A stretch of DNA of 12,048 bases, taken from the IMG/VR virus record IMGVR_UViG_2534682338_000009, positions 1-12,048 of that record. One strand, given 5' to 3'. A program made the position numbers and the translations under genes. The notes beneath the pieces are model-generated. The model was not told where the DNA came from. It searched no databases and worked only from the letters and a program-made list of their open reading frames with translations. Shown piece by piece: positions 166 to 1,554 of the stretch. Positions within the stretch are counted from its first letter, which is position 1, and the number at the start of each line of letters is the position of its first letter. This DNA comes from a virus (Duplodnaviria > Heunggongvirae > Uroviricota > Caudoviricetes).

Positions 166-1554
166 TTACACAAATCTATGTACAGGCTCTAGTTCATCGG
201 TAACATAACGTTCGGTAGCTGCGTTGCTTAGTAGCATTGCTTTAGTGATTTTAATACCCGCAGCATACATGCGAGGCTTAAGTGTAATTTTATCGAAAGT
301 TTCGAAACCGTCGGTAACTGCTTCATCTTCGTTGTAGAATTTAGCTGCTGGAGTCATACCTTTTGCACGTGGGATAGAGAAGTTACCACGGCCTGCAAGC
401 CCACCAAATACGGTTACTGGTAGTTGACCTAGTACAGTAGCTGCGAGTAGTTGACGAATATAGCTGTCTGCTAGTTCTTCTTTTACTAGACCTGCGGCGG
501 TTACAGTAGAAGTAGTATCGTCAGTAGAACGTACCATAGCGTTTAGGTCTGCGTTATAACCACGTGCACCTTTTTCGAAGGATTCTAGATCATGTGCTTC
601 ACCTTTTAGACTGCGTAGACCTTCGTTAATTAGAGATTTCTTTTCCATTTTTTTGATATCCTTATCAATTGATTTATTATCTGTATTTAGTGAGCGTTTA
701 AAGTCTTCAACGCTTACACCGTTTTTAATTGCTTCTTCTGTACTAACACCTAGTACCGAAGAAATAGATCGAAGTTCGCGAATACGATTTGCTTCTACTT
801 CTTTATTTATGCTTTCCTGAATATCAGTTACGGCAATAGAACGTTCCTCTACTAATTCAGGTTGTACTTCCTGTACTTCCTCAATTACTTCTGGTTCTTC
901 TACTACTTCTACTGATTCTTCTTGAACTACTTCTTCTTCTTCGATTACTTCGGCTTGTACTTCTTCTTCCTGTACTTCCTTAATAACTTCAACTTCCTGT
1001 ACTAGTTCTTCTTTTTGTTCTTGTTCCATTTCGGGTAGATCCTCTAGTGTGATTTCTTCATTACTATTTAGTGATCTTCCGATGCCGACGGTGTTGTCCG
1101 CTGGCTGCGAAACACTGGATACTTCGTATGGTTGCCATTTAGAAACAATTAGATTATTACCATCTAGGTAGTAATCTAAGATGTTATAACCTACGGACAC
1201 TTTAGGGCGAATACCTTCTAAGATCATACCGAAGATAGTATTTGCTGTTCCAAGTGCACTAAAACGTACAGTAGCACGACATACTTTATCCATATCTACG
1301 CGGGCATTCTCAACTATACCGACCTGACGCATTGCATCATGTTCTACTAGTACAGGTGCACCGTCATTAAGACGGCTTAAGTCTACGTTTTCAGGACTGC
1401 ATAAAAGGATCTCATTATAGAGAGTCCCTTTAATATCGCGTACTACTGGAATTTCGCTTGCAAATGAGAGTTCTACAGTTCTATCAGCTTCATCAATGGC
1501 ATTATTGATTTGTGTTAGATTGATCGCCCTCGTCTGGTTCTTGTTCAATTCCAT
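166..1554 (-). CDS. Phage prohead protease (HK97/S78-like) - acidic scaffold-like linker - capsid-like C-terminal segment; probably 3'-truncated by the IS insertion
   Basis: N-terminal ~170 aa carry prohead-protease-like motifs (PVLVEHD, YEVSSVSQPADN). Residues ~183-255 are a Glu/Val-rich low-complexity acidic repeat typical of scaffold/delta domains. The C-terminal ~100 aa resemble the start of an HK97-fold capsid protein but are too short for a full capsid domain. The ORF ends about 50 bp from the transposase start. Start at 1554 is preferred over the longest-ORF start at 1602 because of an AAGGAA motif upstream and a smaller overlap with the portal gene. Confidence 0.6.
   Translation of the reverse strand: MELNKNQTRAINLTQINNAIDEADRTVELSFASEIPVVRDIKGTLYNEILLCSPENVDLSRLNDGAPVLVEHDAMRQVGIVENARVDMDKVCRATVRFSALGTANTIFGMILEGIRPKVSVGYNILDYYLDGNNLIVSKWQPYEVSSVSQPADNTVGIGRSLNSNEEITLEDLPEMEQEQKEELVQEVEVIKEVQEEEVQAEVIEEEEVVQEESVEVVEEPEVIEEVQEVQPELVEERSIAVTDIQESINKEVEANRIRELRSISSVLGVSTEEAIKNGVSVEDFKRSLNTDNKSIDKDIKKMEKKSLINEGLRSLKGEAHDLESFEKGARGYNADLNAMVRSTDDTTSTVTAAGLVKEELADSYIRQLLAATVLGQLPVTVFGGLAGRGNFSIPRAKGMTPAAKFYNEDEAVTDGFETFDKITLKPRMYAAGIKITKAMLLSNAATERYVTDELEPVHRFV

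Follow-up and report, generated by a model that had tools for sequence, protein, structure and literature searches.

In phage HK97, an N-terminal helical scaffold extension of the capsid protein is removed by the protease (PMC10275583). The two proteins are encoded there by separate genes. Another design is that of the nested protease/scaffold genes, lambda C/Nu3, UL26/UL26.5 of HSV-1 (herpes simplex virus 1) and HFTV1 gp17/gp17.5 (bioRxiv 10.64898/2026.09.13.751334). Finally, fusions of the protease with the capsid protein are mentioned for the Pseudomonas phage PAJU2, Nocturne116 and thaumarchaeal proviruses (PMC8306868, PMC6563490). Here we consider such a fusion gene from a virus of the Caudoviricetes (IMG/VR record IMGVR_UViG_2534682338_000009, positions 1 to 12,048; this whole stretch of 12,048 nucleotides is called the window below), in which the protease and the capsid parts are separated by a strongly acidic linker. 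We rather favour the reading that the linker is a disordered acidic segment in a nested late gene of a temperate enterobacterial phage, formed by an S78 protease, a delta-like scaffold and an HK97-fold capsid protein.

Compared to HK97, the protease of the window gene is of the same family (S78) as gp4, and its capsid part shares the fold of gp5; similar to the delta domain of gp5, the capsid part has a helical N-terminal extension ahead of the mature capsid fold, as seen in the AlphaFold2 (AF2) model and the TIGR01554 match. Unlike HK97, where the protease is a separate gene and no acidic low-complexity tract precedes the delta domain, here the protease, the tract, the scaffold and the coat form one reading frame. 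The same architecture is observed in the PAJU2 'capsid polyprotein' and the thaumarchaeal proviruses (PMC8306868, PMC6563490), and in phages Bas97, VP882 and Murka. The annotated fusions and the window also share the gene order: terminase, gpW-like protein, lambda-type portal, and then the fusion gene. The likeness to lambda C/Nu3, HSV-1 and HFTV1 is a candidate in-frame internal start with its own ribosome-binding site (RBS) downstream of the protease domain. In the lambda C/Nu3 type, an abundant protease-less scaffold shares its C-terminus with the protease chain; here such a product is predicted. The difference is that lambda, HSV-1 and HFTV1 encode their capsid protein separately, whereas here it lies inside the shared C-terminal part, and that a second internal start may exist here.

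The features of the fusion gene are as follows, with residues counted from the ATG at position 1554.

190–1554, minus strand: the phage-derived part of the protease-scaffold-capsid fusion gene (codons 1–455).
1075–1554, minus strand: prohead protease domain of the HK97 type, Peptidase S78 (residues 1–160).
1341–1339, 1197–1195 and 1125–1123, minus strand: His72, Ser120 and Glu144, respectively, invariant in the family.
835–1074, minus strand: acidic linker (residues 161–240), that is, the short spacer SLNSNEEITLEDLPE before the internal Met, followed by the Glu/Val/Gln tract.
1040–1044, minus strand: Shine-Dalgarno-like (SD-like) motif GAGGA, 10 nt upstream of the internal ATG.
1027–1029, minus strand: ATG of Met176, in frame, where a scaffold-capsid product is proposed to begin.
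835–1026, minus strand: the acidic tract proper (residues 177–240).
649–834, minus strand: helical scaffold (delta-like) region (residues 241–302).
646–663, minus strand: second candidate start, AAGGA (663–659) and the ATG of Met303 (648–646), proposed from the anti-SD energy and codon choice.
190–645, minus strand: N-terminal part of the HK97-fold capsid protein (residues 304–455), comprising the N-arm, the E-loop and a part of the P-domain, and cut by an insertion sequence (IS).

The sole long open reading frame (ORF) covering positions 837–1056 is on the minus strand and is listed at 166–1602; the start at 1554 (MELNKNQ...) is the one used in the RefSeq relatives. In the frame from 1554, positions 837–1056 encode residues 167–240, the 74-residue peptide EITLEDLPEMEQEQKEELVQEVEVIKEVQEEEVQAEVIEEEEVVQEESVEVVEEPEVIEEVQEVQPELVEERSI, with 41% Glu, 20% Val and 11% Gln. 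Both the coordinates and the Glu/Val-rich composition given in the first-pass annotation were therefore right. In the complete linker (residues 161–240), 31 of 80 residues are Glu, versus 7.7% in the remaining protein (binomial p ∼1e-14), and the linker carries a net charge of about −29. Between Met176 and residue 240, a span of 65 residues, 27 are acidic and three basic, and the isoelectric point is about 4.05. The coding strand of the linker is strongly purine-rich, the plus-strand GC skew being −0.43 and the AT skew, −0.4 to −0.5. Many strings of the form (I/L/V)-x-E, considered as possible cleavage motifs, occur in the tract, their number following from its composition. The other strand has no ORF over the stretch 837–1056, and an Rfam scan of the window yielded no RNA family. 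A single-sequence search of PDB with the linker produced only NEMO coiled coils, which, being insignificant (E≥0.02), are low-complexity noise.

The flanks of the linker are indeed a prohead protease and a capsid protein, as the first-pass annotation had proposed; this follows from Pfam, PHROG and NCBIfam matches, invariant residues, and matches of profiles to structures. The Pfam family PF04586 scores 15.1 bits on the protease domain of the window, below the cutoff of 21; all nine relatives that align with this domain over its full length pass (26–41 bits), and at the positions of His72, Ser120 and Glu144, all of the 143 diverse sequences have His, Ser and Glu, respectively. Residues 20–471 are matched by PHROG 617 ('major head protein') over profile positions 6–449 of 626, and PHROG 4523 ('major head and protease protein') matches the fusion protein as well. 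The Pfam domain Phage_capsid is matched only over positions 4–103 of 280, and TIGR01554 (HK97 capsid protein, including the delta domain) aligns from its own position 42, at residue 283. The NCBIfam family NF045541 (scaf_prot_MCP2; prohead protease/major capsid protein fusion) yields 123.5 bits, versus the cutoff of 525, over positions 1–247 of 634. As this score is far below the cutoff, the window gene belongs to another subfamily with the same architecture; the copy is also truncated. Among solved structures, the family profile matches 8gta (1e-79), and then the RcGTA capsid, 80alpha and HK97, that is, HK97-fold capsid proteins. The paper on 8gta (R4C) says nothing of a protease or a fusion.

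The AF2 model was built for the closest intact homologue using the alignment of 143 diverse sequences; its mean predicted local distance difference test (pLDDT) score is 82.8. The prediction from 23 close homologues was unusable (mean pLDDT 41). In the model, the protease occupies residues 13–165 (pLDDT 95–98). Residues 166–242 have pLDDT about 40 and no secondary structure, the flanking domains being at 90–98. Helices follow from 245 to about 316 in the numbering of P0001, with pLDDT up to 96 within 245–301, and after a low-confidence segment at 343–359 comes the confident HK97 fold. The linker is thus predicted to be intrinsically disordered, without structure. Together, the domain matches and the model give the order protease, disordered acidic linker, delta-like helical scaffold, capsid protein, and hence the stretch does sit between the protease and a delta/scaffold-like helical region, as was initially suggested.

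The start of the linker contains a putative internal ribosome-binding site that the first-pass annotation missed. When the linkers of the family are compared side by side, most of them hold a Met 10–25 residues past the protease. We fetched 80 IMG/VR loci and analysed 84 non-redundant loci; in 77 of them, there is a Met 3–45 residues past the end of the protease (median 17). The candidate SD sites were scored by pairing the region from −18 to −4 with the anti-Shine-Dalgarno sequence, the energy being expressed in kcal/mol. An energy of −5 or lower is observed for 65% of the linker Mets, versus 17% of arbitrary codons in the same linkers and 11% of other in-frame Mets in the same ORFs (Mann-Whitney p 5e-16 and 1e-13). 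Among the initial ATGs of long ORFs from these loci, the fraction is 57%, and hence the linker Met resembles a genuine start. It falls in the best tenth of its own linker in 62% of the loci (binomial p 7e-29).

In the window, the duplex energy at Met176 is −5.8 kcal/mol, versus −5.4 at the annotated start. The GAGGA motif is built with the rare Glu codon GAG (in the gene, five GAG versus 55 GAA). The SD site TAGAGGATC is invariant in the loci of the E. coli clade, and Met176 is present in all 116 close homologues. The energy of the Met303 site is −6.0 kcal/mol, and the site is kept, with SD energies of −5.1 or lower, in the loci of the clade, including those with as little as 32% identity. Its SD is built from a Lys codon that is AAG in 16 of 16 loci, although AAG makes up only 27% of the Lys codons. 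Among all in-frame start codons of the window ORF, only M1, M176 and M303 reach −4 or lower. These features suggest that the linker probably is also the N-terminus of a nested product, with a conserved internal RBS and ATG at its start. The chances are about even that the complete set of nested products is protease-scaffold-coat from the ATG at 1554, scaffold-coat from the ATG at 1029, and, in this clade, coat alone from the ATG at 648. In the open-access literature that was searched, protease-capsid fusions are mentioned only in passing and no description of internal starts in them was found, although one may exist elsewhere; the sources on NF045541, PHROG 4523 and 617, and the PAJU2, thaumarchaeal, Bas97, VP882 and Murka fusions nowhere mention such starts.

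Several observations weigh against this interpretation. The nested products are read off from RBS-like motifs and the conservation of Met only. The loci are phylogenetically related, and so the p-values given for the linker Met overstate independence. The SD of Met176 in the window is a 5-mer, and the 10-nt spacer is rather long. The purine-rich linker has further SD-like strings with no start codon, upstream of residues 195–198 and 228–231. The conserved K-D/E residues upstream of Met303 could reflect a constraint at the protein level, although the synonymous choice of AAG argues against that. Further, low pLDDT does not prove disorder. Bas97, VP882 and Murka manage with non-acidic linkers, and a natural variant, P0065, lacks 35 acidic residues while its ORF is otherwise intact; hence much of the tract may be dispensable. 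Finally, the copy in the window is a pseudogene, and hence nothing here is functional now.

Alternatively, the gene could produce a single polypeptide with the protease on every subunit, the linker being a passive tether removed by autoproteolysis, and the SD and Met sites being relics of formerly separate genes or a coincidence. We find this unlikely. The databases do annotate the fusion genes as single coding sequences (CDSs), autocatalytic cleavage of the polyprotein has been proposed (for PAJU2, cited in PMC8306868), and the linker is predicted to be disordered, all of which agrees with a tether. However, a relic RBS would decay, whereas the signal formed by the Met and the SD equals that of genuine starts in relatives that are only 25–30% identical. 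Moreover, rare synonymous codons are retained exactly where the SD is built.

If the gene is nested, ribosomes starting at the ATG at 1554 would make the full-length chain that brings the protease, while those starting at Met176, about 15 residues past the protease, would make a more abundant protease-less scaffold-capsid chain with the acidic tract at its N-terminus. Initiation at Met303 of an intact gene would give a product of about 317 residues, as large as an HK97-type capsid protein encoded on its own, and this product may be the coat alone. The ratio of protease, scaffold and coat would then be set by the strengths of the starts and not by separate genes. More tentatively, in the full-length chain the tract might tether the protease flexibly enough for it to get to its substrates, and in the nested product, it might act as a negative, non-sticky disordered scaffold tail that fills the interior of the procapsid; the protease might cut the tract away, and it might leave as DNA enters. 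Only the charge and the flexibility of the tract would be constrained, and its self-similar GAA/GTA-rich DNA would gain and lose codons by slippage or recombination between short repeats. Tailed phages also have acidic scaffold proteins, for instance gp7 of phi29, gp9 of T7 and the core proteins of T4, which are net negative in the procapsid and are removed or expelled on DNA packaging. They are separate and largely helical proteins, whereas the acidic part here is a disordered tail of variable length.

The DNA of the linker had been described as highly repetitive and encoding near-repetitive units. The first-pass description stands in part. Tandem Repeats Finder (TRF) does report overlapping low-score arrays with periods 9, 18, 21 and 42 and 69–83% matches, as well as one perfect 9-nt unit in 2.1 copies. 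A repeat search shows self-similarity of 61–75% at offsets that are all multiples of three. As a null model, we shuffled the 76 codons of the segment 2000 times. The longest exact direct repeat, 15 nt, is inside the distribution for the shuffled segments, and neither repeated 8–15-mers (p ∼0.25–0.3) nor repeated tetra- and pentapeptides (p 0.17–0.55) exceed the codon shuffles. Thus this is compositional low complexity with codon-phase self-similarity and not a unit repeat. This bears on the possibility that the tract is a true tandem-repeat contingency locus, in which the number of units switches at high frequency and thereby varies the capsid precursor. The weak TRF arrays and the length differences among strains would fit such a locus, but the repetitiveness is within the codon-shuffle range, there is no defined unit, the self-similar copies being 61–75% identical, and all variants are in frame and differ in length irregularly. 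We regard this explanation as very improbable.

The prediction that the linker length varies between strains by slippage or recombination was borne out when homologous fusions were aligned. Measured between the fixed anchors GIGR...ERSI, it is 48 residues at the shortest and 83 at the longest among 120 homologues, which come from Escherichia, Shigella, Citrobacter and Salmonella, and nearly all gaps in the family alignment of the protein are located in the linker. Since only two complete E. coli genomes carry the region, the within-species variation of the linker DNA was drawn from metagenome and Logan contigs. One DNA variant has a deletion of 105 nt, bounded on either side by a copy of AT(T/C)GAGGAAGTACAG, and further variants differ by GAAGTACA(G/A) or GAA units. 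The indels are in-frame and adjoin short direct repeats, which fits slippage or short-repeat recombination. The flagged stretch is a disordered, very acidic and length-variable spacer within a known kind of phage fusion gene.

The pooled ratio of nonsynonymous to synonymous polymorphism (pN/pS) is 0.27 in the linker, 0.09 in the protease, and 0.14 in the scaffold and capsid parts. The linker is under purifying selection that is milder than in the flanks, yet real. In 116 close homologues, the fraction of acidic residues in the linker is 32–40% and the number of basic residues is two to five, and this is kept even where the sequences cannot be aligned. Hence the composition is constrained, while the sequence and the length are not. 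It is also conceivable that the tract is neutral filler, a GAA/GTA-rich expansion made by slippage in a tolerant inter-domain region and having no function beyond not interfering. The tract has the highest substitution and indel rate in the protein, the lengths of 48–83 residues include the 35-residue deletion, and many family members have short or non-acidic linkers (10–136 residues in the whole family), as one would expect of filler. On the other hand, pN/pS is well below 1, the acidity and the near absence of basic residues are seen in 116 of 116 close homologues, including the unalignable ones, and independent clades have acidic tracts of other composition at the same place. We therefore consider neutral filler quite improbable.

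Both the fusion and the acidic linkers had been called unusual, and neither is. The fusion is found in 259 representatives of 50%-identity clusters (E≤1e-30), mostly of 580–680 residues, it has its own families (NCBIfam NF045541, PHROG 4523 and 617), and the cultured phages Bas97, VP882 and Murka, in which the gene order is that of the window, carry it too. Across 143 family representatives the linker length is 10–136 residues, and in about 20% of them, mainly from the clades nearest to the query, the linker has at least 35% of acidic residues. At this position, acidic tracts that differ in composition are present in independent clades. A linker with the Glu plus Val/Ile flavour is particular to this enterobacterial lineage.

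The linker region and the head module are found by megablast in two of 5426 complete E. coli genomes. The intact relatives are whole prophages: they have tail genes and, adjacent to yegD, a serine recombinase. A capsid-forming phage-inducible chromosomal island (PICI) or another satellite was considered and ruled out, as the intact relatives carry full tail modules and this recombinase.

The gene is bordered in the window by two further features.

1–189, minus strand: terminal segment of IS1414 (IS256 family), identified by megablast and the junction alignment.
1502–2998, minus strand: lambda-family portal gene (Pfam PF05136, 7.8e-61).

The copy of the fusion gene in the window is truncated by IS1414 at codon 455 and is a pseudogene, which was missed in the first-pass annotation. 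By megablast, window positions 1–194/205 are 97–99% identical to copies of IS1414 annotated in numerous E. coli genomes. The N-terminus of the IS1414 transposase begins at position 117 (minus strand) and the gene runs off the window start. When the window is aligned with two copies of IS1414 and with an intact capsid gene, the junction falls at approximately 189/190, and the end of the IS contributes the seven final codons and the stop (166–168) of the truncated capsid ORF. The intact homologues have 590–621 residues; about 164 C-terminal residues of the capsid protein are absent from the window. The remaining genes of the module, encoding the small and large terminase subunits, the gpW-like protein and the lambda-type portal, look intact, and hence the insertion of IS1414 may be recent. 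The E. coli protein P0035, annotated as 'major capsid protein, partial' (450 residues), ends with ...NAATERYV, which is five residues short of the point where IS1414 interrupts the window copy. The two copies share only 90% identity, and P0035 may end where a contig was broken by an IS that, in a different lineage, entered at almost the same site. A stretch of 53 nt (1502–1554) is used in different frames by the portal gene and the protease-capsid gene; this overlap is also annotated in the intact relatives, and it may provide for coupled translation.

A gene for an OLD-family ATPase/TOPRIM nuclease (AAA_15 and OLD-like TOPRIM; PHROG 4747) is located at 6315–8135 on the plus strand, with flanks at approximately 5987–8275. 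It separates the small terminase gene from the early region and is encoded on the opposite strand. The gene is present in the closest relatives, the Logan contigs L008 and L009, and is absent from the related prophage L001, and so its distribution resembles that of a moron or of defence cargo. Other E. coli chromosomes also have this gene, at different places and with 92.5% identity. Just past its stop, at 8154–8171, there is a GC-containing inverted repeat gccagtactagtactggc, similar to a terminator stem but having no clear T run. Farther downstream, the intergenic region contains a perfect heptamer repeat, TACTCAT, in 9.3 copies (8262–8326). Two independent contigs, L008 and L009, end inside this repeat, which suggests that it is long or variable there.

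An intergenic region in the early part of the prophage (11184–11218) contains the 14-nt direct repeat GACTTTGGATAATT in 2.5 perfect copies, which could be a protein-binding array. The 225-residue ORF at 10132–10809 (minus strand) matches PHROG 1353, whose function is unknown (1.8e-66), while ORFs 8538–8915, 9473–10006 and 11572–12048 have no match in PHROGs or NCBIfam. The G+C content is about 31–48% over the 3 kb that were profiled. The usual value in E. coli is about 50%. The low G+C and the presence in only two of 5426 genomes point to a recently acquired, rare prophage lineage that also occurs in Citrobacter and Salmonella.

By itself, the linker is a minor, lineage-specific, disordered and length-variable spacer in a known fusion protein. 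However, fused protease-capsid genes pose a stoichiometry problem, as they place a protease on each of several hundred subunits. If the nested reading is true, conserved internal starts would solve this problem in the manner of lambda and herpesviruses, and nested CDSs would replace the single 'major capsid protein' annotation across hundreds of phage clusters. It would be a natural case of ratio setting by nested initiation that includes the coat protein, and the nested protease-scaffold design of lambda and herpesviruses would be extended to the capsid protein itself.

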